A stretch of DNA of 37,845 nt from Helicobacteraceae bacterium (GCA_031276985.1 JAISMA010000192.1:1-37845); one strand, 5' to 3'; positions 8,564-33,990 are shown, counted from the first letter of the stretch. Notes: generated from the sequence alone by a model not told the origin. Numbers and translations are program-made.

Positions 8564-10165
8564 TTATTGTTTAGGCGATTTCTCCTGCCAATATAGCGTC
8601 GGATACTTATAATCGCCAAACGCGCCCCAAACCCAAGGATTGGCGTCATTACCGCCAAAGCGCCAGCCAAGCCCGCCGTCGCTTTCGGATTTCAAATAAG
8701 TCGCGTTTAGCTCGAAATTAGCTTGCGTAGTACTATCGCCTTCTACGCCGTTAGCGCCCAAAGCGCTTACGTTCATTGAATCAAGCGCGAAATTGTTAAA
8801 TATACGCTCGGCGGGAGCTAAAGCGTCTTTATGTCCGATTATGCGATTTGCGTCGCCCGTCGCCGTAATTTTTGCGTTGATAGCGGCGTTGTTTGAAATT
8901 TTAATCCAATGTCCCGAAGCGCCGCCGACAATACCGCCAACTTTATAATCGCCGCCGATATTGCCTTCGGAATAACTATTTGCTATCAAAAGAAACCCGT
9001 TTCCAAAATCTCCTACGGCAAAGCCCGCGATTCCGCCCGTGAAATTACCTTCGCCGATAACGTTGCCTATCGAATAGCTATTATTGATTTCGCTGTTATC
9101 GTCGCCATGGTTATAAGCGTATCCCGCTATGCCGCCAACATGATTAACGCCCTTTATTCTCGCCGCGGAATATACGTTTTTCACTCTGCCTTCCAGAAAA
9201 TATCCGACGATTCCGCCCGTATTATTGCCGCCAATAATTTCGCCTTTGGAATAGCTGTCGTTTATATCGCCGTTTTCAACTCGTCCCGCGATCCCGCCCG
9301 CATAGTCGCCGCCTTTTACGTTGCCTTCAAATCCGCTAAGGCTTATTTTGCCGTCGTTAACTCCCGCGATTCCGCCTGTATGATCGCTACCGCTTACGTC
9401 GCCTTTGAATATAGCGCCGCTAATTACGCCGTTGTTGTTTCCCGCGATTCCGCCCGTATTAGAAACGCCGCTTATAGCGCCCTCGAAGCTAACGTTTTCT
9501 ATTAAGCCGTCGTTGATCGCGGCGATCGCTCCGCTATAGTAGCTAGAGCCGTTTATTTCTTTGCCAATCGCCGTTTTTACCGCGAGGTTTTTTACCGCGC
9601 CGTAGTTTCCAATCGTTTTGAATAATCCCACATGCGAATCGCCCTCGCCGTCAATCCATAACTCCGTTATAGCGTATCCGTTTCCGCTTAACGTTCCCAT
9701 AAACTTTTTTGCCGAGTCGTCGCATAACGAATCCCATTTGCTTTTCAGCGCAATATCGTTTAGCACAATATATTTATTTAGCGATCCGCAACTAGCGTTA
9801 ACATCTTTTAGATCGCTTTCGGTTCTTATTTCTGTTACGTTAGCGTCGGCGTAGAAATTTGTATCGCCTTGTAGCCAATATTCGCTCGTCTTTGAAATGG
9901 GCGTAACTTCGCCGCCTTTGTACCAGTTGTCCACTCCGTATTTCGCGGAATAAACGCTAAGGTTTATCGCCGATCGATCGCGGACAATATCTTTTTCCAG
10001 CAAAGAAAGATTGGTATCGTAAAAGGCGATTTCCGCGTTTGAACCGCTTGAATCCCCGCCGCCGCCGTAGCAACCGAATAAGCCAAGCGCGACAAACGCC
10101 GAAGCGAAAAGTTTAAGCCAGCCAAAACGCTTTAGCGCGTAAAAGCGCAATCGGGTCGCGGACAT
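8564..10165 (-). CDS. surface lipoprotein with GLUG-motif repeats
   Basis: Signal peptide with lipobox LFGC and a Gly/Ser linker. At least 8 tandem ~20-aa repeats are built around TGGIAG/VGGIAG (GLUG motif, as in IgA-protease-like adhesins). Confidence 0.75.
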   Translation of the reverse strand: MSATRLRFYALKRFGWLKLFASAFVALGLFGCYGGGGDSSGSNAEIAFYDTNLSLLEKDIVRDRSAINLSVYSAKYGVDNWYKGGEVTPISKTSEYWLQGDTNFYADANVTEIRTESDLKDVNASCGSLNKYIVLNDIALKSKWDSLCDDSAKKFMGTLSGNGYAITELWIDGEGDSHVGLFKTIGNYGAVKNLAVKTAIGKEINGSSYYSGAIAAINDGLIENVSFEGAISGVSNTGGIAGNNNGVISGAIFKGDVSGSDHTGGIAGVNDGKISLSGFEGNVKGGDYAGGIAGRVENGDINDSYSKGEIIGGNNTGGIVGYFLEGRVKNVYSAARIKGVNHVGGIAGYAYNHGDDNSEINNSYSIGNVIGEGNFTGGIAGFAVGDFGNGFLLIANSYSEGNIGGDYKVGGIVGGASGHWIKISNNAAINAKITATGDANRIIGHKDALAPAERIFNNFALDSMNVSALGANGVEGDSTTQANFELNATYLKSESDGGLGWRFGGNDANPWVWGAFGDYKYPTLYWQEKSPKQ

Positions 10166-10194
10166 AACGTCTCCTTTGAGCGTGGTTTGCGTTG

Positions 10195-10200
10195 ATTATA
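10195..10200 (-). promoter_or_regulatory. putative -10 box (TATAAT) for the GLUG lipoprotein gene
   Basis: Minus strand reads TTGCGCTATAAT-N17-AAAGGAG-N5-ATG. Confidence 0.3.
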
Positions 10201-10262
10201 GCGCAATTGTCGTTAGATGAAGATTGGTCGCAAAAGATCGCGGCGCTTTGTCGTTGAGATAC

Positions 10263-10318
10263 CTTTTTGGATGCGCCCCCCCGCGCTCTAGCTCTGCTTT
10301 GCAAGGCAGAGCGCGGAG
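10263..10318. repeat. Y module of the composite intergenic repeat, copy 1
   Basis: Near-identical to 11636-11690. Contains the palindrome CTCTGC-tttgcaag-GCAGAG nested in GCGCTCT...AGAGCGC. A degenerate X-like copy sits at 10196-10262. Confidence 0.7.
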
Positions 10319-10331
10319 CGACAAGAAGCGT

Positions 10332-10422
10332 GATCGCGCCCCCGCGAAGGCGCGCGATACGCCGATCCAGTAGCCGTAGCCAATCGATCGGCGCAACCGC
10401 TTTTTAAGAGCCGCGTTTTACC
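10332..10422. repeat. X module of the composite intergenic repeat, copy 1
   Basis: ~90 bp: GATCGCGCCCGCGAAGGCGCGC..CCAATCGG-N14-CCGATCGGCG..GTTTTACC. Four copies occur in the window. Its end contains the stop codon of the RNase H-like gene. Confidence 0.75.
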
Positions 10423-10810
10423 TTTTGCTCCGCCTCTCCGCCGCCTTTCTAGCAATATCGAGGCAACTCTCATGCATATCCGATTCGTCGCCGTCGCCTA
10501 TTCTTCTTGCCTTGACTGTGCGCTCTTTGCCGTTTGCCTTTTTCGCCGCGTCAAGTTGATCCAAAAGGTCTTCGTTTTTCTCTGGCTTTGTAATATCGCC
10601 ATTGATGCCTTTTTGGATATAGATGTTGTTGCTAATCACCTCGATTTCGCAAGATGCGGTCAGAACTTTCAGCGCCTCTATGACGGCGGTTAGCTCCATT
10701 TTGTGGTTGTCTGTCGTTTCAACCGGACCGCCGCTAATTAACGCGACCGCGCTCCATCCGCCCGGTATGTTCTTGTTTCCCAAACCCGCAGGAAAAACAC
10801 TGATTTTCAC
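10418..10810 (-). CDS. miniature RNase H-like protein, copy B (predicted catalytically inactive)
   Basis: GTG start with AAGGAG 6 nt upstream. Alignable to RNase HI (PGGW, NHKMEL, YIQKGI, CLDIARKAA), but the first Asp position is Ala (VFPAGL versus IFTDGS) and the third carboxylate is Asn (ISNN versus STDS). Confidence 0.7.
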   Translation of the reverse strand: MKISVFPAGLGNKNIPGGWSAVALISGGPVETTDNHKMELTAVIEALKVLTASCEIEVISNNIYIQKGINGDITKPEKNEDLLDQLDAAKKANGKERTVKARRIGDGDESDMHESCLDIARKAAERRSKR

Positions 10811-10863
10811 TTTGACTCCTTTTGTAGTTTTGCCAAAGCGATCGACGCTAGATTTTTCTTTGC

Positions 10864-11156
10864 ATCGCTTCGCAATGTTTGAGCAAGATTTAACTTGCCG
10901 ACTTTTTTGACATTTCGTTTAGCGCCGCGCCGCAACAGTTTGCTTTTTGCAGTTTTTGCGGCGTAAATCGCGGATTTTATGGAGGAGCGGGCATAAGAGC
11001 TTTTCCTTGCGCTTCGGTCAATCCTAGTTTCACGCCCGTTCCCTCTTGATTCAAAAAGTTAGCGATCGTAGCGCAAGCATTCTTAAACATTTCTTAAATA
11101 CGCGAAAATTATTTTGACGCTTGCCGCGAGGCTCTCTTTCGCCCGCGACGGAATTT
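10864..11156 (-). other. conserved non-coding module, copy B (candidate structured leader or ncRNA)
   Basis: No ORF of 60 aa or more. Colinear with 14284-14430 plus 14597-14751. Conserved 8-bp stem CGCCGCAA-N20-TTGCGGCG and GCAAG-N6-CTTGC hairpin. Confidence 0.4.
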
Positions 11157-11559
11157 TTAGATTGAGATTAGTTGCAAAGGATTTATGGGCAAACCGTCTT
11201 TGGTAACTTCAAAAACAAGCTCGTCGCTTACTCGCCCGATTGATTCGCGTTCTTTAAGCGATCGCGCCACTTTGATATTGGGCGAAATGCTGTCGAGATT
11301 GCGATAGATCGTGTGAATGTTGCCCTGATGTTCAACAATCACCACTTTGCCCAACGCTTTGATATTGTCGGCGAAAACCACTTTGCCGGGCAGCACGTTT
11401 CGGACAAGCGCGTCGCTTGAGCTTGCCCTGAGCGTTACGGAGTCGTTGTGTATTTTGATGTTGTAAACGGGATCAGTGTATGGACCAAACTCTTTCACGA
11501 GTTTTATCGGCGGGCTATCCAGCGGCGCTTTGACCTTTTTGCCGTCGTAAGCGCCCGCG
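11157..11559 (-). pseudogene. duplicated 3' fragment of envC (LytM domain, 134 codons plus stop)
   Basis: 396 of 403 nt identical to 14752-15154, with identical encoded protein. The N-terminal two thirds of the gene are missing. The 5' end is fused to an X repeat, and only a TTG without an RBS is available as a start. Confidence 0.8.
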
Positions 11560-11635
11560 AAGGCGCGCAATACGCCAATCGGTTAGCCGTAGCCATCCGA
11601 TCGGCGCAACCGCTTTTCAAGAGCCGCGTTTTACC
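11551..11635. repeat. X module, copy 2
   Basis: Matches 13121-13205 almost base for base. Its first 9 nt (GCGCCCGCG) coincide with the envC duplication breakpoint. Confidence 0.75.
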
Positions 11636-11690
11636 TTTTTTGGATGCGCCCCACGCGCTCTAGCTCTGCTTTGCAAGGCAGAGCGCGGAA
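11636..11690. repeat. Y module, copy 2
   Basis: Matches 10263-10318. Confidence 0.7.
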
Positions 11691-11719
11691 CGAACGGGTG
11701 GGCTAACGCCAAACGTTTC

Positions 11720-13096
11720 CTACTGATCTTTTACGATGCGAAGTCTGCGGTCGCCATAGTCGCCTTCCTCGCGCCAAGTCGCGTTTTTGCCGCGTCCGAC
11801 AAAATACCCGCAGTAACCTTTCTTTGGCTGATTCGCCGGATCAACCTGATCTTTTGCGGAATAAGCGCCGTAGCAATCGCCTGCCAACTGCTTTTCGTAG
11901 ACGAAGGAGAGCCCGTATTGATTGGTGTCGCCACGCTTGTATTTCTCTTCGCCAGCTTTATAGTTATCCCCCCAAAAGAATTTTGTCGTCGTACCTGCGC
12001 GCATCGCGTAGTCTAATTCAGCTTCGGTAGGCAGGCGGTATTTGGTTGTGTTTTCTTTTTTATTTAGCGCCGCAATAAACTTTTGCGCTGTTTCAAACCA
12101 AAAGCTGTCGACTTCCTCGTTTTCGCCTATTCCCCTCCCATACGCTTCGCCCGTAACGTCATACCACATTCCGCCGGTAATTTTAAGGTCTTTGGCGATG
12201 TAAAACGGCTTGGTTAGCGTTACTTTATGTTGCGGTATTTCGTTTTCATTGCATTGGCGTTTCATCTGTCCCAAAGCGACCGCTCTCGCGTTTGCGGGAT
12301 CGTCGTATGGATCGGTGCACCCCATTTGGAAGGAGCCTGGCGGAATCAAAACAAACTCCATGCCGATTGAGTTTTTGAATGTGGGTAGATTCTGAACCTC
12401 GACCAGCGGTTTTTTCAGCTCTTCGGCAAGTTTACGCTCCGCTTCCGCCTTTGCTTCCGCTTCTTTGCGTTTTACTTCGGCAAGTTTACGCTCCGCTTCC
12501 GCCTTTGCTTCAGGGGACAGTGCGCATCTGGCCGATTCCATTCCATTCGACGCCCAGTCCTTTTCTGTTTTCATAAGAGATATCTTCCCTTTTTCGCAGT
12601 GGAACGCGACGCCGCCAACGACAAGCTGTTTTTCCCCAAAAAGCGCTTCCAGCTCGCTCTTTTTCGCTCCGTATAAGTAGTTATTTGCTGGTAGCGACTC
12701 CGCATACGGAAACGGATACAGCAAATCGTAGCTCTGCAAAACTCCGGCCACTATGTGAAATACGTGGGCGGAGGACGAATCAACCTCCACCGTAACGTCC
12801 TTTTTGCCCGTAACGGTGTAGTTGAAATACACGAGAAAAGTACCGTCTTGCTGCTTTAGGCGATCGGTTATCTGCGCTTTGATCTCGAAAACAGCCATTA
12901 TAGCCTCCACCCAATCTTTCTCGCGACTATCTGTATATTGAGCAAATCTATATTGAACAAAGCTCTCCAACAAACGTTTCTCGTAGTTCTGCCGCACAAA
13001 ATCCTCGACTACCTTTTCGTCGGGCTTTTCGGCGCAACCGCTAAAGGCGATCATCGCAATAAGCGCGATCATAGTCGCGTACTTTCTTGTTTTCAT
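11720..13096 (-). CDS. lipoprotein with a C-terminal FGE-sulfatase (SUMF1/C-type-lectin-fold) domain
   Basis: Signal peptide with lipobox FSGC and an AKAEAERKLAE coiled-coil repeat. Also GMEFVLIPPGSFQMG, EIPQHKVTLTKPFY and YRLPTEAELDYAMRAGTTT, which are typical of PF03781-type domains. Confidence 0.8.
   Translation of the reverse strand: MKTRKYATMIALIAMIAFSGCAEKPDEKVVEDFVRQNYEKRLLESFVQYRFAQYTDSREKDWVEAIMAVFEIKAQITDRLKQQDGTFLVYFNYTVTGKKDVTVEVDSSSAHVFHIVAGVLQSYDLLYPFPYAESLPANNYLYGAKKSELEALFGEKQLVVGGVAFHCEKGKISLMKTEKDWASNGMESARCALSPEAKAEAERKLAEVKRKEAEAKAEAERKLAEELKKPLVEVQNLPTFKNSIGMEFVLIPPGSFQMGCTDPYDDPANARAVALGQMKRQCNENEIPQHKVTLTKPFYIAKDLKITGGMWYDVTGEAYGRGIGENEEVDSFWFETAQKFIAALNKKENTTKYRLPTEAELDYAMRAGTTTKFFWGDNYKAGEEKYKRGDTNQYGLSFVYEKQLAGDCYGAYSAKDQVDPANQPKKGYCGYFVGRGKNATWREEGDYGDRRLRIVKDQ
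12421..12511. repeat. in-frame 54-bp tandem duplication inside the FGE-domain lipoprotein gene
   Basis: cttcggcaagtttacgctccgcttccgcctttgcttc occurs at 12421 and again at 12475. It encodes the repeated (A)KAEAERKLAE. Confidence 0.7.
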
Positions 13097-13116
13097 TGTT
13101 TGACCTTTCTGTTTGT

Positions 13117-13205
13117 GATCGCGCCCGCGAAGGCGCGCAATACGCCAATCGGTTAGCCGTAGCCATTTGATTGGCGCAACCGCTTTTCGAGAGCCGCGTT
13201 TTACA
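13117..13205. repeat. X module, copy 3
   Basis: Lies immediately upstream (on the minus strand) of the RBS and ATG of the FGE-domain lipoprotein gene. Confidence 0.75.
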
Positions 13206-13280
13206 TTTTTCGCCGCCTCTCTGCCGCCTTTCTAGCAATATCGAGGCGACGCTTATGCATATCCGCTTCGTCGCCGTCGC

Positions 13281-13727
13281 CTATTCCTCTACGCTTTTTA
13301 CCGTTTGCTTTTTCGCCTCGTCAGTCCGATCCAAAAGGTCTTTGTTTTTCACGCGCTCTATAGCGTCATTGTTTTGGATATAGGCGTAGATTTGCCACAC
13401 AAAATCATCAGCGTCATTGAAGCCGTTTTGGATATAGGCGTAGATTTGCCACACAAAATCATCGACTACCTTTTGCTTTTTCGCCTCGTCAGTCCGATCC
13501 AAAAGGTCTTTGTTTTTCACGCGCTCTATAGCGTCATTGACGCCGTTTTGGATATAGGCGTAGATTTGCCGCACAAAATCATCAGCGTCATTGACGCCGT
13601 TTTGGATATAGGCGTAGATTTGCCGCTGATAGTCCTCGACCGTCTTTTTATCAGGCTCTGCGGCGTAACCGCTAATGGCAATCGACGCAATAAGCGCGAT
13701 CATAGTCGCGTACTTTCTTGTTTTCAT
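13281..13727 (-). CDS. chimeric secreted repeat protein (signal peptide fused to amplified RNase H-derived segments)
   Basis: Start taken at MKTRKYATMIALIA (13727), which has the same RBS and 5' region as the gene at 13096. The body is (DDFVRQIYAYIQNGVNDA)x4 interleaved with IERVKNKDLLDRTDEAKKQ x2, similar to IYIQKGINGD...KNEDLLDQLDAAKK of RNase H-like copy B. Confidence 0.5.
   Translation of the reverse strand: MKTRKYATMIALIASIAISGYAAEPDKKTVEDYQRQIYAYIQNGVNDADDFVRQIYAYIQNGVNDAIERVKNKDLLDRTDEAKKQKVVDDFVWQIYAYIQNGFNDADDFVWQIYAYIQNNDAIERVKNKDLLDRTDEAKKQTVKSVEE
13308..13643. repeat. nested tandem repeats (168-bp unit x2, each containing two ~54-bp sub-units)
   Basis: tcagtccgatccaaaaggtctttgtttttcacgcgctctatagcgtcatt starts at 13321 and again at 13489. 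ggatataggcgtagatttgcc occurs four times. Confidence 0.8.
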
Positions 13728-13747
13728 TGTTTGACCTTTCTGTTTGC

Positions 13748-13811
13748 GATCGCGCCGCGAAGGCGCGTAGTACACCGATCGGTTAGCCGTAGCCATTCGA
13801 TCGGCGCAACG
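13748..13811. repeat. X module, copy 4 (truncated)
   Basis: The first ~64 nt of X lie between the stop of RNase H-like copy A and the RBS of the chimeric ORF. Confidence 0.65.
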
Positions 13812-13813
13812 GG

Positions 13814-14242
13814 TTATCCCTTGTTCTTGAGCTTTTCAGCGACCTCTTCGGCGATCTTTTTGGCAATCTCTCGCGCGATCTTGTCGCATTGTTTAAGCTC
13901 CTCAATGGAATTTCTTTTCAGCCATTTCGCCGTTACCTTGTGCCGTTTGGCGACGGCGAGATACGCATCCCACAAATAGGGTTTTTCGCTGTCTTTTACC
14001 CCGTTATTGATCCCATTTACAACGATTTCGTTGTCTAAAGTTAGCTCTATCGAGCTAGGCTCTTTCAACAAAAGAAGCGCCGCTACAGCGGGCGCAAACT
14101 CCATTTCATAACTGGTAGCGTATGTAGCGCCGCCGCTTAATACTTGTTCCGCGCCGCCCTCGCTTCGCACGATCGCGCACCAACCGCCCGCGCCCGGATT
14201 AGGCACAGCGCTTCCGTCGGTAAAGATTTTAACTTGTCCCAT
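13814..14242 (-). CDS. miniature RNase H-like protein, copy A (DEDD carboxylates retained)
   Basis: Start taken at MGQVKIFTDGS (14242, AAGGA RBS). IFTDGS, YEMEF, TLDNE and QCDKIARE align with D10/E48/D70/D134 of E. coli RNase HI. The basic protrusion is shortened and the His124 position is not His. Confidence 0.8.
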   Translation of the reverse strand: MGQVKIFTDGSAVPNPGAGGWCAIVRSEGGAEQVLSGGATYATSYEMEFAPAVAALLLLKEPSSIELTLDNEIVVNGINNGVKDSEKPYLWDAYLAVAKRHKVTAKWLKRNSIEELKQCDKIAREIAKKIAEEVAEKLKNKG

Positions 14243-14485
14243 TTTTTGTTCCTTTCGATTTAATGACCGCCAAGCAATCAATGATCGCTTCGCAATGTTT
14301 GAGCAAGATTTAACTTGCTAGTTTTTAACGTTTCGCTTAGCGCCGCGCCGCAACAGTTTGCTTTTTGCAGTTTTTGCGGCGTAAATTGCGAATTTTATGG
14401 AGGAGCGGGCATAGGAGCTTCTCCTTGCGCGTTATGGCGGGTTGCGCTTGAAACGCTAAAACTATGAAAATTTAATCTATTGGCT

Positions 14486-14504
14486 GGGGGGGGGGGGGGG
14501 GGGG
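14486..14504. repeat. homopolymeric G19 tract (C19 on the transcribed minus strand)
   Basis: Counted directly: 19 consecutive G inside the copy-A-specific insert. Confidence 0.9.
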
Positions 14505-14649
14505 TGAAAGGCGTTTGAGCGCGTTTGGCTCGATCAACGAATACAAATTGTGCGGCAATACGGATTTTGCGAAAAGATTATTGGCTAACCATATCCGATT
14601 GGTTAATCCTGATTTCACGCCCATCCCCTATTGATTCATAAAGTTATCT

Positions 14650-14655
14650 ATTATA
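14650..14655 (-). promoter_or_regulatory. putative -10 box (TATAAT) downstream of envC, heading the non-coding module and RNase H-like copy A
   Basis: Minus strand reads GCTTGCGCTATAAT. The same TTGCGCTATAAT context occurs at 10195-10206. Copy B has TACGAT at the equivalent position. Confidence 0.3.
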
Positions 14656-14751
14656 GCGCAAGCATTCTTAAACGTTTCTTAAATACGCGAAAATTATTTG
14701 ACGCTTGCCGCCATTCTCGCCGCGAGGCTCTCTTTCGCCCGCGACGGAATT

Positions 14752-15978
14752 TTAGATTGAGATTAGTTGCAAAGGATTTATGGGCAAACCGTCTTTGGTA
14801 ACTTCAAAAACAAGCTCGTCGCTTACTCGCCCGATTGATTCGCGTTCTTTGAGCGATCGCGCCACTTTAATATTGGGCGAAATACTGTCGAGATTGCGAT
14901 AGATTGTGTGAATGTTGCCCTGATGTTCAACAATCACCACTTTGCCCAACGCTTTGATATTGTCGGCAAAAACCACTTTGCCGGGCAGCACGTTTCGGAC
15001 AAGCGCGTCGCTTGAGCTTGCCCTGAGCGTTACGGAGTCGTTGTGTATTTTGATGTTGTAAACGGGATCCGTGTATGGTCCAAACTCTTTCACGAGTTTT
15101 ATCGGCGGGCTATCCAGCGGCGCTTTGACCTTTTTGCCGTCGTAAGCGCCCGCGCCCGCGCCCTGATACGAAGCGCCGTAGTGTTTAACGGCGATTTTCG
15201 CGCCCGGTAGCGTATCTTGCGCCGTAATCCGCGATTGTTTCATATCGTCGACCGTTTTTTGGCGCACAATGTTTAGATCGGCTAATAACTGCCGTTCTCG
15301 ATTTTTTTGATCGATTAGTTTGTTAAGCTCGGCGAGATAGCCGTTTTTGCGTTTGTTTAGCGTTTCGATTAGTTTCGTTTGATCGCTTCTAAGCGCGCGT
15401 TGTCTCGCGTCGGCTTTAGCGAGAGCGTCAAGGTTGTTTTGCAGTTCGTCTATGCGGTTTTGCGCTTTTTTAATCTGCGCGATCTTATCGGCGTAGTTTA
15501 ATTTTAGTCGCGCCGTGTCTTTTTGCACGCGATCTCGCATTCTAAAAAATATCTCGATTTTCACCATATCCGCATCGCTTTGCGCCCCGCTTTTTTCCAG
15601 CACCAAACTTTGCGCGGCGTGATTAGCCAGCAGTTTAACAAGTCTTTGCTCGATTGCGTCTCGCTCCGATACAAGCACGTCTTTTTGCTTTTGCAAAGCG
15701 CTAAATTCGCCGCGCTCGCTTGAAACTTTTTGCGTTAGCGCTTTGATCTCTTTCTCGCCGACAAGCAACGCTTTTTCAATATCGGCGATCAGCGCGTTGG
15801 CGTTTGTAATCTCTTTGGATAGCGCGTCGACTTTGGTTTGAAGCGCGCCTTCGTCGCTTTGGCTTTTTTCAAGACGGTTTTGCGCCGCTTTGATCTCCGC
15901 TTCGATCTCGCCAAGGCTTTTGGCTTCGATCGCAACCGCTACAAGCGCTAAAATCGATAAAAACTTGAACAAGTTCAT
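14752..15978 (-). CDS. envC: EnvC-like murein hydrolase activator (coiled coil plus degenerate M23/LytM domain)
   Basis: Signal peptide, ~250-aa coiled coil and a C-terminal LytM fold. The usual HxH motif is replaced (ELVFEV). It lies immediately downstream of ftsEX. Confidence 0.8.
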   Translation of the reverse strand: MNLFKFLSILALVAVAIEAKSLGEIEAEIKAAQNRLEKSQSDEGALQTKVDALSKEITNANALIADIEKALLVGEKEIKALTQKVSSERGEFSALQKQKDVLVSERDAIEQRLVKLLANHAAQSLVLEKSGAQSDADMVKIEIFFRMRDRVQKDTARLKLNYADKIAQIKKAQNRIDELQNNLDALAKADARQRALRSDQTKLIETLNKRKNGYLAELNKLIDQKNRERQLLADLNIVRQKTVDDMKQSRITAQDTLPGAKIAVKHYGASYQGAGAGAYDGKKVKAPLDSPPIKLVKEFGPYTDPVYNIKIHNDSVTLRASSSDALVRNVLPGKVVFADNIKALGKVVIVEHQGNIHTIYRNLDSISPNIKVARSLKERESIGRVSDELVFEVTKDGLPINPLQLISI

Positions 15979-16805
15979 TGCGTTTCTTCGGCTTTCAAGA
16001 TTACAAACAAGACGCTGCCCAGCGCAATCGCAAGCGATACGCCAAAAAGCGTCAGCGACGAAAAGACGGGATCGTAACGAACGCCGCTTAACCCCGCTTC
16101 GCCCAATAATTTCCCGACGGTAGAATCGGCGGATAACAGATAAAATAAACCCCCTACGGTCAGCGAAGACAAAAATGAATCGACAATCGCCAGACGAATC
16201 AGCGCCGCGCTTCTAAGCAATAAAGGCGCGCCGAATATCGACATAATGTTTATGCGCTTGCTATGCTCAAAACGCCACACTTCCATTTGCCGCACGATCA
16301 GCAAGATCGCCGCGACAAACATTAGCGCCGCTAGAGCCGCGAGCATTGTTTTAATCAACGACAAAAGCCTGTAGATTTTATCCTGAGTTTTGGCGAACGT
16401 CTCGACGCGAACGATTGAATCGTTTTTCAGCAGTTGGCGCTCTATGTTTTCGCGTTCCGCGATGGAGGGATAGGAACTAAGCCGAAGGCTGTAAAAACGC
16501 GGCAGCGACGTTTTAAGATAGGCTAGATTCGCGTCGCTAAGCGCGTCTTTAACCTCGTCCAAAATCAGCGCGGAATCGATTATTTCCAGCGCGACGGCTT
16601 TTGGCGCGTCGATTGAAATATCGGATAATTCCAGCGGTTTTTTCGCCGCTAAAACGATCGCGTATTCGTCGCCTAATGCGATTTCATAATCGTTTGTTAC
16701 CTGCGAAAAAGTCGTAAAAGATTGAAAGGCGGCAAGCATAGTGGATAGCGCGAGTATTAACGACAGGTGGTTTTTAATAGTTGATTTCAACGAGTCGCCC
16801 CTCAT
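15975..16805 (-). CDS. ftsX: cell division permease FtsX-like protein
   Basis: One N-terminal TM helix, a periplasmic domain and three C-terminal TM helices. Located between ftsE and envC. Confidence 0.8.
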   Translation of the reverse strand: MRGDSLKSTIKNHLSLILALSTMLAAFQSFTTFSQVTNDYEIALGDEYAIVLAAKKPLELSDISIDAPKAVALEIIDSALILDEVKDALSDANLAYLKTSLPRFYSLRLSSYPSIAERENIERQLLKNDSIVRVETFAKTQDKIYRLLSLIKTMLAALAALMFVAAILLIVRQMEVWRFEHSKRINIMSIFGAPLLLRSAALIRLAIVDSFLSSLTVGGLFYLLSADSTVGKLLGEAGLSGVRYDPVFSSLTLFGVSLAIALGSVLFVILKAEETQ

Positions 16806-17448
16806 CGATACGAAAATGGCGATAGTTTACGCCCGCGATACTAGGCATTCTGTGCGTAACGATCACCACGGTTTTTCCAAGCTGGTTTACCGCCATAAAC
16901 AACTCATGCACAAGTTGCGCCGAAAAGTCATCCAGATTGCCCGTAGGCTCGTCGGCAAGAAGCAGCATTGGATTGTGCGAAAGCGCCCGCGCAACGGCTA
17001 CGCGCTGTTGCTCGCCGCCGCTTAATTCTTGCGGAAACCGATCGCGGCGGTGCGTTAAGCGCACGTGTTTTAACAGTTTTTCAACCTGATCTTTGATTCG
17101 TTTTTGATCGTAGCCCGCGATATAAAGCGGCAACGCGATATTGCGCTCAATCGACCACTCTTCGATTAAGCGGTAATCTTGAAACACGATTCCAAGTTTG
17201 CGGCGCAGGCGATCGATTGAGCTTTTGCTATCGGCGGGCATTTTCACGCCGCCTACGCGCAAATAGCCTTTTATCGGAGCGACCGCGCCGTAAAACGCCT
17301 TGATTAGCGTGCTTTTGCCGCTACCGCTCGCGCCCGTTACGAATATCAGATCGCCTTCGTTAATGGAAAACGAGAGATCGCGTAAAACGACTTCGCGGCT
17401 GTCGTAAGCAAGCGACAAATCTTTAGCGAAAGCGATTTCGTTAGCCAT
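16774..17448 (-). CDS. ftsE: cell division ATP-binding protein FtsE
   Basis: Walker A GASGSGKST, signature LSGGEQQR and Walker B LLLADEPT. Start taken at MANEIAF; the track ORF begins 4 codons earlier. Confidence 0.9.
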   Translation of the reverse strand: MANEIAFAKDLSLAYDSREVVLRDLSFSINEGDLIFVTGASGSGKSTLIKAFYGAVAPIKGYLRVGGVKMPADSKSSIDRLRRKLGIVFQDYRLIEEWSIERNIALPLYIAGYDQKRIKDQVEKLLKHVRLTHRRDRFPQELSGGEQQRVAVARALSHNPMLLLADEPTGNLDDFSAQLVHELFMAVNQLGKTVVIVTHRMPSIAGVNYRHFRIDEGRLVEINY

Positions 17449-18589
17449 AAAGCGTCTCAATCAAAGCGTTATGCGCCAAAAAATTAGAGGGCGAATGGAT
17501 TGGCTCGGACGGAAAATAAGCGACGCGATCGTTTTGCGCCAAAAGATACGCCGTTTGTAAAGCAAGCCGATCGCCCATAATTAAGCGCACAAGATAACCT
17601 TCGTTCGCAAGTTGCCACCGTCTATCGGCTTTTAGCAAAAACTTTTCCGAGTTTGCGATTAAGCCGCGCGCGATCTCGCCTTTTGGCTTGATTGCGTTTG
17701 GAAAGTCGAAATTATACGATATTGATCTCTGCGTTTGATCGCGCAGATTGGTTAAAAACAGATCGAATATCGTTTTGTTTAGTCGCCGCCAACGATCTTC
17801 GTATTTGCTACGCGTTATCGCCTCTTCGTTTGTTTTGGTCTCGATCGCCGCGTTTTCAAACTTTTTGGCGATTTCAAGGGCGCGGTTAAAATAGCTTTGG
17901 CTGTCGGTGCGAAGATGTAAAACGCCGTTTTTTTCCAATACGCGCAACGCTTCTTTAACGAAAGGCTCGCTAAAAATTCTACGATCGGGCGACTTGTCCC
18001 AAGGGATTGGAAAATGCGCGAAAACTCTTTCGGCGCAAGCGGAGGGCAGGGCGGCTAACAGCGTTTTGGCGTCGCACAAAAGCGCGGCGACGTTACCGAC
18101 GCCTTGTTCTTCGGCGCGCCGAAGCAACCGCATGGCGCTTGGTCTGTGTATCTCCGCGCCAAGATGAAGTTTGTCCGAAAAGCGTTTCGCGTTTTGCAAT
18201 ATGTGTCGTCCGCTGCCAAAACCCGCCTCGATCCATAACTTTTTGCCGCGATCGAATTTGGCGATAAATTCGTTTGGCTCGTAAAACAGATCGCTAAAAA
18301 CGACGCTTTTAATCTCGCCGAAGTTTTTGCGTATGATCGTCGCGCCGCTCGCGTTTGCAAACTCGACCAGCGCGAGTTTTACGCTTTCAAGAAACGGCGG
18401 GCGCGTCGCTTTATCGACCTTTAAGATCGTCGCGTCGTTTCGCGGCGAAAAATGAAGCAGAAAATTGCGATTTTGGGCTTGCACGCCCGCTACGCCCTCT
18501 TTGCCGATCGAGGCGAATAAAAACTTTAATCCCGCGCTTTCAAACGGCGTTTGCGCCGCCGCGAAATTCGCGGCTAAAATATGCGGCAT
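17441..18589 (-). CDS. trmB: tRNA (guanine-N7)-methyltransferase, long epsilonproteobacterial form
   Basis: C-terminal domain has EAGFGSGRH, FPIPWDK...RR and LHLRTD motifs characteristic of TrmB. Confidence 0.85.
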   Translation of the reverse strand: MPHILAANFAAAQTPFESAGLKFLFASIGKEGVAGVQAQNRNFLLHFSPRNDATILKVDKATRPPFLESVKLALVEFANASGATIIRKNFGEIKSVVFSDLFYEPNEFIAKFDRGKKLWIEAGFGSGRHILQNAKRFSDKLHLGAEIHRPSAMRLLRRAEEQGVGNVAALLCDAKTLLAALPSACAERVFAHFPIPWDKSPDRRIFSEPFVKEALRVLEKNGVLHLRTDSQSYFNRALEIAKKFENAAIETKTNEEAITRSKYEDRWRRLNKTIFDLFLTNLRDQTQRSISYNFDFPNAIKPKGEIARGLIANSEKFLLKADRRWQLANEGYLVRLIMGDRLALQTAYLLAQNDRVAYFPSEPIHSPSNFLAHNALIETLYG

Positions 18590-33515: not shown

Positions 33516-33563
33516 TCCAGCTTTCTCGCTCGTTTCAGCGCCGAATGCAAAACCTGCCCCTTT

Positions 33564-33990
33564 GTCATTCCGCGCGTAGTCGCAGAATCCACTTTCTCGC
33601 GTATCTAGTAATTCGCGCAATTGCATCCGCGCGCTCAAAACATACCTTCGTATTAACCGCGCCCTCCCATCCCTCCGCGCCATCTCCGTCATTCCGCGCG
33701 TAGTCGCGGAATCCAAACATCGCGTAGCGATAACAAGCGCTTACAATTGGCGATTGATCCGCGATTGTCTTAAATGCTAGATTCTGCGACTTCGCGCGGA
33801 ATGACAAGCGGGCGCGGGGTTTATGCGATCCGATTGCTTTTTACTGATTTTGCGCCTTTTTGCGAAAGTTCAACTTATGCCGTCATTATGCGCGAAGTCA
33901 CAGAATCTAGTATTTAGGCGATCTCAAGCCAATCGTTATTCGCAAGTCTCTAATTTTTTATGTTTGGATACCAGCTTTCGCGGGAATGAC
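33564..33990. repeat. cluster of five palindromic REP-like units (GTCATTCCGCGCGTAGTCGCGGAATCC) in both orientations
   Basis: Copies at 33564-33590 (+), 33688-33714 (+), 33780-33805 (-), 33882-33907 (+, degenerate) and ~33975-33990 (-, partial). The core is ATTCCGCG-N6-CGCGGAAT. Confidence 0.75.

Follow-up and report, generated by a model that had tools for sequence, protein, structure and literature searches.

EnvC is an FtsEX-bound activator of cell-wall amidases, and it works in the periplasm, where it is bound to FtsX. Among the systems that resemble an envC gene accompanied by a second, orphan copy of its own 3′ end, a close one is the icd/icdC pair at e14 in Escherichia coli K-12, in which an intact gene, accessory DNA and an orphan C-terminal fragment at a distance likewise occur together, and in which nearly all differences between the two copies, both derived from functional alleles, are silent or conservative, as they are here (Hill et al. 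1989, as described in PMC13626634). The likeness has its bounds: e14 is a prophage with a site-specific integrase and is able to excise, whereas at the locus studied here there is no recombinase, the homology extends far beyond the stop codon, the junction formed at a microhomology to a repeat found locally, and the cargo would be an alternative haplotype of this accessory locus.

A second comparison is offered by homology-facilitated illegitimate recombination, the hallmark of which, according to PMC8504540 (citing de Vries and Wackernagel 2002 and Prudhomme et al. 2002), is joining at microhomologies of 3–10 nt that are preferentially G+C-rich. The present locus is alike in having one junction (J1) at the 9-nt sequence CGCGGGCGC and another (J2) at AAAAGGTA, in having no dedicated recombinase, and in the placement of diverged DNA beside homologous sequence; the process has been demonstrated in other genera only, and for this lineage we infer the donor, the anchor and the competence of the host. 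The window examined here, by which we mean the whole stretch of 37,845 nucleotides that was analysed, is a single metagenome-type contig of 37.8 kb. Reading its sequence, we consider that the orphan envC tail is probably a non-functional relic of microhomology-mediated illegitimate recombination, an event that would have joined two haplotypes, ~8–10% diverged from each other, in tandem.

The envC cluster and the insertion behind it

The intact envC-like gene (14752–15978, minus strand, 408 aa) is the last gene of a trmB-ftsE-ftsX-envC cluster, in which ftsE (ABC_tran) lies at 16774–17460 and the FtsX-like gene (15975–16805) overlaps the envC start; among the 16 relative loci compared, 15 keep this gene order. 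The encoded protein begins with a signal peptide (N-terminus MNLFKFLSILALVAVAIEA), continues as a long coiled coil, reflected in coiled-coil-type matches to BRE1, DUF3450 and SMC, and ends in a C-terminal M23/LytM domain (Pfam Peptidase_M23, PF01551; E = 7e-10, 39.4 bits against a cut-off of 28.7). Its best PDB match is 8i6o_E (E = 1.4e-7, residues 32–368), deposited as ‘Membrane-bound metallopeptidase’, which we take to be the EnvC chain of the FtsEX-EnvC complex (PDB 8i6o / 8i6s). By inspection, the segment aligned to the HxH region reads SDELVFEV, and the metal-binding HxH motif may have been lost, in which case the domain would be degenerate. The likeness to the FtsEX-bound amidase activator consists of the signal peptide, the long coiled coil, the C-terminal M23 domain and a position directly after ftsE-ftsX. 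Similarity to characterised EnvC proteins is low: the NCBIfam model PRK11637 (EnvC) was matched with the fragment as query only, at 18.8 bits against a cut-off of 270, and because this curated equivalog model is not passed the name EnvC rests on architecture, on context and on the names EnvC or M23 peptidase that the sources give to the homologues. The orphan copy retains the LytM domain only.

The close homologues of this EnvC all come from metagenome-assembled genomes of uncultured Helicobacteraceae or Campylobacterota. No conspecific EnvC was found by protein search, in which the nearest sequence is 82% identical, and exact-protein look-ups of EnvC, the fragment open reading frame (ORF), the rnhA-type protein and the lipoprotein encoded by lipo2 (see below) returned zero matches; a scan of species-representative genomes gave 13 loci, all ≤80% identical, and one metagenome scanned for related sequence gave a single, unrelated match of 26%. 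In relatives that are 74–82% identical in EnvC, the gene is followed directly by one for a GLUG-motif protein, 47 nt after envC in the loci L014 and L015 and ~110 nt after it in L003. In the window this GLUG gene (8564–10165, minus strand) lies at the far edge of the interval 10166–14751, which is therefore a lineage-specific insertion of 4.6 kb, and it is inside this insertion that the orphan fragment sits. Neither a comparable orphan envC fragment nor a second envC copy within 10 kb on either side was present in the 16 relative loci.

With respect to mobility, no integrase, transposase or other recombinase was found among all ORFs of 10166–14751, on both strands and with small ORFs included, or among the flanking genes; the matches from the scan of the insert are limited to RNase_H, FGE-sulfatase and a weak DUF6891. 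GC content is 0.45–0.54 both within and outside the insert, and a derivation of the insert from plasmid or phage DNA was rejected, there being no blastn match in plasmid or phage collections. As a separate observation, in L014 (13591–21227), the closest relative, genes for a tyrosine integrase, TraG_N and a Rep3-like protein occur just past the GLUG and DUF411 genes; this set suggests an integrated conjugative or plasmid-like element, and hence a neighborhood that is variable in relatives too.

Silent differences and the selection behind them

The repeat consists of copy A (14752–15154, minus strand), which is the 3′ 403 nt of the intact gene and comprises the LytM domain and the stop codon, and copy B (11157–11559, minus strand), the orphan fragment of 133 codons plus stop. 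Ungapped alignment of the two gives 396 identical bases out of 403, with differences, in copy B coordinates, at 11256, 11274, 11289, 11310, 11373, 11475 and 11484, exactly the sites listed in the preliminary description of this DNA. All seven (five transitions, two transversions) fall at third codon positions of the envC frame on the minus strand and are synonymous, as that description had it; its products of ‘134-aa’ are indeed identical to each other, with a length of 133 residues plus the stop, that is 134 codons. Counting by the method of Nei and Gojobori gives S = 94.7 and N = 304.3 sites, with 7 synonymous and 0 non-synonymous differences, and hence dS = 0.078 and dN = 0.

Several origins of this pattern can be set aside. 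Under neutrality the probability that seven out of seven differences are synonymous is 4e-5 at kappa = 1 and 2.7e-4 at kappa = 8, which rules out chance. If the fragment had been neutral and the intact gene constrained, 62% of the changes are expected to be non-synonymous, and none in seven then has a probability of 1.2e-3; this rules out simple decay in place of a pseudogene fragment and agrees with the earlier argument that such a fragment should gain mostly non-synonymous changes. Gene conversion was rejected by reasoning, since it erases both classes of difference alike and since a neutral fragment should afterwards have gained mostly non-synonymous changes, against which the same p = 1.2e-3 applies. 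Functional orthologues compared over the same 134 codons have omega values of 0.04–0.11; by our arithmetic, such values at dS = 0.078 would predict ~1.4 non-synonymous changes and a probability of ~0.24 of seeing none, so that zero amino-acid changes is what two functional alleles would show. Judged from these codon counts, the differences between A and B are ones that have been filtered by purifying selection, and the dN/dS test thereby sustains the proposal that the two copies diverged under it.

Where this selection acted is a separate matter. Polarisation with outgroups assigns derived synonymous changes to both copies; at codon 28, for example, ACC of the outgroups corresponds to ACG in copy A and to ACT in copy B. 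Only a few of the seven sites can be polarised in this way, because dS to the outgroups is 0.6–1.5, and for the copy B lineage alone the signal of selection is weak (~2–3 derived changes out of seven substitutions in total, p ~0.02–0.07).

The fragment might have been kept by selection in its present place, either as a translated, degenerate LytM domain or as a silent cassette whose homology to envC allows recombination with that gene. Such a role would account for zero non-synonymous changes at dS = 0.078 and would fit an ORF (11157–11570) that stays open for 137 codons; furthermore, if the nearby repeats that are 6–20% diverged are of the same age, there has been time enough for decay. The signals needed for expression speak against it. 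The ORF has no ATG, and its sole start is a TTG at 11570, five codons after an in-frame TAA and buried in the strong hairpins of the adjacent repeat element D2 (see below); there is no Shine-Dalgarno sequence before this TTG and no promoter-like site on the minus strand between 11560 and 11720. The signal peptide and coiled coil of the intact protein are both absent from the fragment, although EnvC does its work in the periplasm and attached to FtsX, and none of the relatives compared has such a fragment. A fusion of the fragment with lipo2, the lipoprotein gene upstream of it, was also considered and rejected, the frames being different and separated by in-frame stops. Since an ATG, a ribosome-binding site and a promoter-like site are missing, as are the parts of the protein needed for the periplasm and for FtsX, a free-standing function of the fragment is unlikely from its sequence; the suggestion that it is expressed as a stand-alone LytM domain is accordingly disfavored, and selection in place, in either form, is in our estimate very improbable. 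The other suggestion made at the outset, that the fragment stems from the functional envC of another lineage, is in its general form the best-supported reading.

Two diverged units and their junctions

The preliminary description treated the repeat as a 3′ fragment of envC, which is correct for the envC tail, but the homology runs on past the stop codon, leftward to about 10880 / 14300, at 88–91% identity and with indels. The intergenic region downstream of the intact gene (IG_A, 14300–14751, minus strand) contains a C19 tract at 14486–14504; its homolog downstream of the fragment (IG_B, 10880–11156, minus strand) is without a stretch of 168 nt. Over the 280–450 nt concerned the two are 9–12% diverged, which is similar to the dS of 0.078. 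Gapped alignment of the entire units (15200→13700 for unit A against 11620→10200 for unit B) gives 98.3% identity for the envC tail, intergenic indels of 11 nt and 168 nt, the larger of which removes the C19 tract, an identity of merely ~50% (global alignment) or ~65% (local blastn) between the DNA of the RNase H-like genes that follow, with 26% at the protein level, and ~85% identity for D2, a structured element of ~65 nt. On the plus strand the C19 tract reads G19 and is located ~240 nt upstream of the rnhA-type ATG (14242); it could be phase-variable, as is common in Helicobacter and Campylobacter, or of a length that short reads resolve poorly.

The RNase H-like gene of unit A (rnhA type; 13814–14242, minus strand) matches Pfam RNase_H with E = 7e-12 and NCBIfam RNase HI with E = 1e-24, the latter below the family cut-off, and its closest homologs are housekeeping-type rnhA genes, 43% identical. 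In the gene of unit B (rnhB type; 10418–10810, minus strand) the first catalytic Asp is replaced, FPAG standing in place of TDGS by inspection of the sequences in the window and in the relative locus L022, and the rnhB type may represent a conserved inactive RNase H fold. Both types are old. Because the two genes are so deeply different, and because each type is found elsewhere, units A and B are better seen as different haplotypes than as a fresh self-copy.

This comparison bears on an older tandem duplication, in which a second complete envC would have existed, both genes being functional and diverging under purifying selection in one genome, until a recent deletion at the microhomology between D2 and envC left only the 3′ third of the downstream copy. 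Such a history yields the same silent-only pattern and the same single microhomology junction, in a region that evidently tolerates repeated partial duplications. It would, however, require a redundant envC outside the ftsEX operon to have been held at an omega near 0 for a dS of ~0.08; it leaves unexplained why the rnh-like proteins are 26% identical when their flanks are ~90% identical; and none of the relatives compared carries, within 10 kb on either side, the two envC genes that it calls for. We regard it as unlikely.

The two haplotypes that we favor as the source of the repeat would each contain parts of a module that is known from relatives. The gene lipo2 (11720–13096, minus strand) encodes a lipoprotein with an FGE-sulfatase-like domain (Pfam match) and has two homologs, in the Helicobacteraceae metagenome-assembled genomes that contain L021 and L022. 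In L021 the order is an rnhA-type gene, D2, a lipoprotein gene and the palindromic element D18, with a DNA identity to the window of 82–90% (L021 1–1685); in L022 (2482–4211) an rnhB-type gene, 48% identical to that of the window, overlaps the start of an FGE-type lipoprotein gene. From these arrangements, the rnh-like and lipoprotein genes form a conserved accessory pair, in which D2 is a natural internal spacer. Of this rnh-lipoprotein module, one copy in the window is complete and several others are partial. One further ORF, lipo1 (13281–13727, minus strand), is a mosaic, in which a signal peptide of the lipo2 type (74% identity between the two peptides) is joined to an rnhB-type 3′ half, from which its tandem repeats of 54 and 120 nt (13371–13648) are derived; it is probably another rearrangement scar with a non-functional product. 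Other partial duplicates in the region (D2, D4 and D6) are 6–20% diverged.

D2 has a core of ~65 nt within a repeat family of ~90 nt and follows every rnh-like gene. The copy next to the fragment (11551–11640, minus strand), defined by the repeat family, alignments and folds, is cut at J1; other copies are found at 10338–10427, 13121–13210 and 13751–13840 of the window and at 167–229 of L021, where the element separates the rnh-like gene from the gene for the lipoprotein. It is predicted to fold into a hairpin of 16 bp followed by a short G+C hairpin, the hairpin being kept in 94% of cells over five copies, and covariation among these five copies is not above that of shuffles. No Rfam family matches D2 at the gathering threshold or at E ≤ 1, nor is it a tRNA or tmRNA, and searches of viral contigs and of the 16 relative loci gave no match, L021 being the only other place in which it occurs. 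Its role could be that of a spacer, a processing site or a recombination hot spot. As candidates for a described system, an integron attC site and a cassette array were both tried and rejected: the box-like motifs GTTGCGC and GGCTAAC are, by inspection, off consensus and in the wrong order, the order RYYYAAC ... GTTRRRY required of attC does not occur, and an integrase is absent from the insert and its flanks.

J1 (11551–11559, minus strand) was defined by comparing the fragment with both of its parents, intact envC and full copies of D2. On the gene strand, intact envC reads GGGCGCGGGCGC followed by TTACGACGG, and a full D2 copy reads CCTTCGCGGGCGC followed by GATCAC; the fragment has CCTTCGCGGGCGC followed by TTACGACGG, that is D2 to the left of the join and envC to the right. 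The nine bases shared by the D2 end and envC read GCGCCCGCG on the plus strand; the extent first assigned to the repeat, 11157–11559, therefore includes at its end nine bases that belong equally to D2, and these are not unambiguously envC. J2 (11632–11640, minus strand), located 80 nt upstream of J1 on the gene strand, has a microhomology of 8 nt at which the end of a D18 element is joined to an rnh 3′ end and D2, and the D18 palindrome so joined follows lipo2. D18 is present at 10260–10321 (minus strand), again at 11632–11693, and at 1710–1770 of L021. With the mosaic lipo1 and two joins at microhomologies, the region is a patchwork of illegitimate joins. D18 itself, which comes after the lipoprotein module, is a nested perfect palindrome, CCGCGCTCTGCCTTGCAAAGCAGAGCTAGAGCGCGG; for lack of a U-run it is not a classical intrinsic terminator.

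The same features permit an evaluation of a site-specific island of the e14/icd type, which would have entered the 3′ end of envC with a replacement end of its own and left the displaced native end as the fragment. By analogy this is attractive, in that the accessory DNA, which the relatives lack, has an intact gene on one side and an orphan 3′ fragment on the other, and in that the silent-only differences recall those reported for icd and icdC at e14 (PMC13626634). Yet recombinases of any kind, integrase and excisionase included, are absent from the DNA between the repeats and next to them, the homology covers a further 280–450 nt after the stop codon, with homologous rnh-like genes and D2 coming next in both units, the partner at the junction is an intergenic element repeated locally, with a second junction 80 nt away, and the base composition is that of the flanks, with no phage or plasmid match. 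We consider an island of this kind quite improbable, and the comparison with islands that bring a replacement 3′ end, drawn in the preliminary description, fails on the same four points: recombinase, homology past the gene end, microhomology junction and composition.

An error of assembly, by which two co-existing strain haplotypes of the region downstream of envC were strung into one contig, is to our judgment as improbable as the island. The relatives are metagenome-assembled genomes, related contigs bear names of the k119 type, and the differences between the copies resemble strain polymorphism, all of which would be in keeping with such an artefact, a possibility named already in the preliminary description. 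J1, on the other hand, shares nine bases only, from which it follows that k-mers spanning it must exist in the reads, since they are not something that a graph assembler could make up; the longest exact run common to the copies (~100 nt) falls short of 119, the k that the related assemblies imply, so that no collapse or tangle is expected; and the copies are separated by 3.2 kb of unique sequence.

A proposed joining of two haplotypes

We suggest the following scenario for the joining of two diverged haplotypes at microhomology. Both would share a layout of envC 3′ end, intergenic region, rnh-like gene and D2, one of them carrying an rnhA-type gene and lipoprotein genes, and the other an rnhB-type gene, then D18 and the GLUG gene. 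While they diverged, each would have been attached to a complete, working envC, and the differences would be silent only because selection removed amino-acid changes as long as both genes worked; the fragment would be undecayed because the join is recent relative to the divergence between A and B. The DNA of a diverged strain may plausibly have entered by homology-facilitated illegitimate recombination. One end would then have been resolved by homologous recombination, in envC on the upstream side or in D2/D18/GLUG on the downstream side, and the other end joined, D2 to envC, at CGCGGGCGC. Either copy could be the incoming one, with the other as resident. We infer in this way that the haplotypes came from different lineages, in what order the events took place, and that the route was transformation. 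The partial duplicates that are 6–20% diverged (D2, D4, D6) could instead point to an old history in place rather than to recent import.

Template switching, or tandem segmental duplication, is a further process with resemblance to the locus, since junctions of 8 and 9 nt bracket a D2 filler and the partial duplication is in direct orientation; the second junction and the filler of 90 nt would fit it too. Replicative duplication within a genome yields identical copies. Given the neutral divergence of 8–12% and the non-matching rnh-like genes, template switching would need a further step.

A more elaborate possibility is that the locus downstream of envC is a cassette-exchange site, at which rnh-like/lipoprotein modules are swapped between strains and selection retains the envC tail, which would serve as a spare anchor, as a silent donor or as a translated sequence. 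The anchors of such an exchange would be the envC tail with the intergenic block on one side and D2/D18 on the other. Of all the readings presented here, this is the one to which we assign the lowest probability.

If two haplotypes were indeed joined as proposed, a silent-only pattern can arise in a fragment that is non-functional, as an allelic polymorphism that was inherited and then frozen when the haplotypes were joined. The scar is a known kind of feature, an ordinary recombination scar, and opens no new biological question; it would be a well-defined natural case of microhomology-mediated joining in an uncultured Helicobacteraceae lineage of termite-gut type, and, if confirmed with strain-resolved data, would suggest that recombination between strains shapes these genomes much as it does in Helicobacter. 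For annotation, we recommend that 11157–11559 be marked as a fragment of a pseudogene and that no M23 peptidase gene be called there, and the 4.6 kb from envC to the GLUG gene is best treated as a hypervariable accessory locus.

Simple repeats were noted at two loci of relatives: in L014 a (CT)n tract at the 5′ end of its GLUG gene (~11320–11340) and a (GA)~17 tract upstream of the rnh-like gene in L022 (2160–2195). These dinucleotide repeats suggest contingency-type simple repeats at surface-protein loci. In a distant part of the window (33556–33813), inverted copies of an element of ~26–34 nt, GTCATTCCGCGCGTAGTCGCGGAATC, resemble an intergenic element of L022, gtcattcccgcgtaggcgggaatcc (~1820–1950), and may represent a REP-like dispersed repeat of this lineage.
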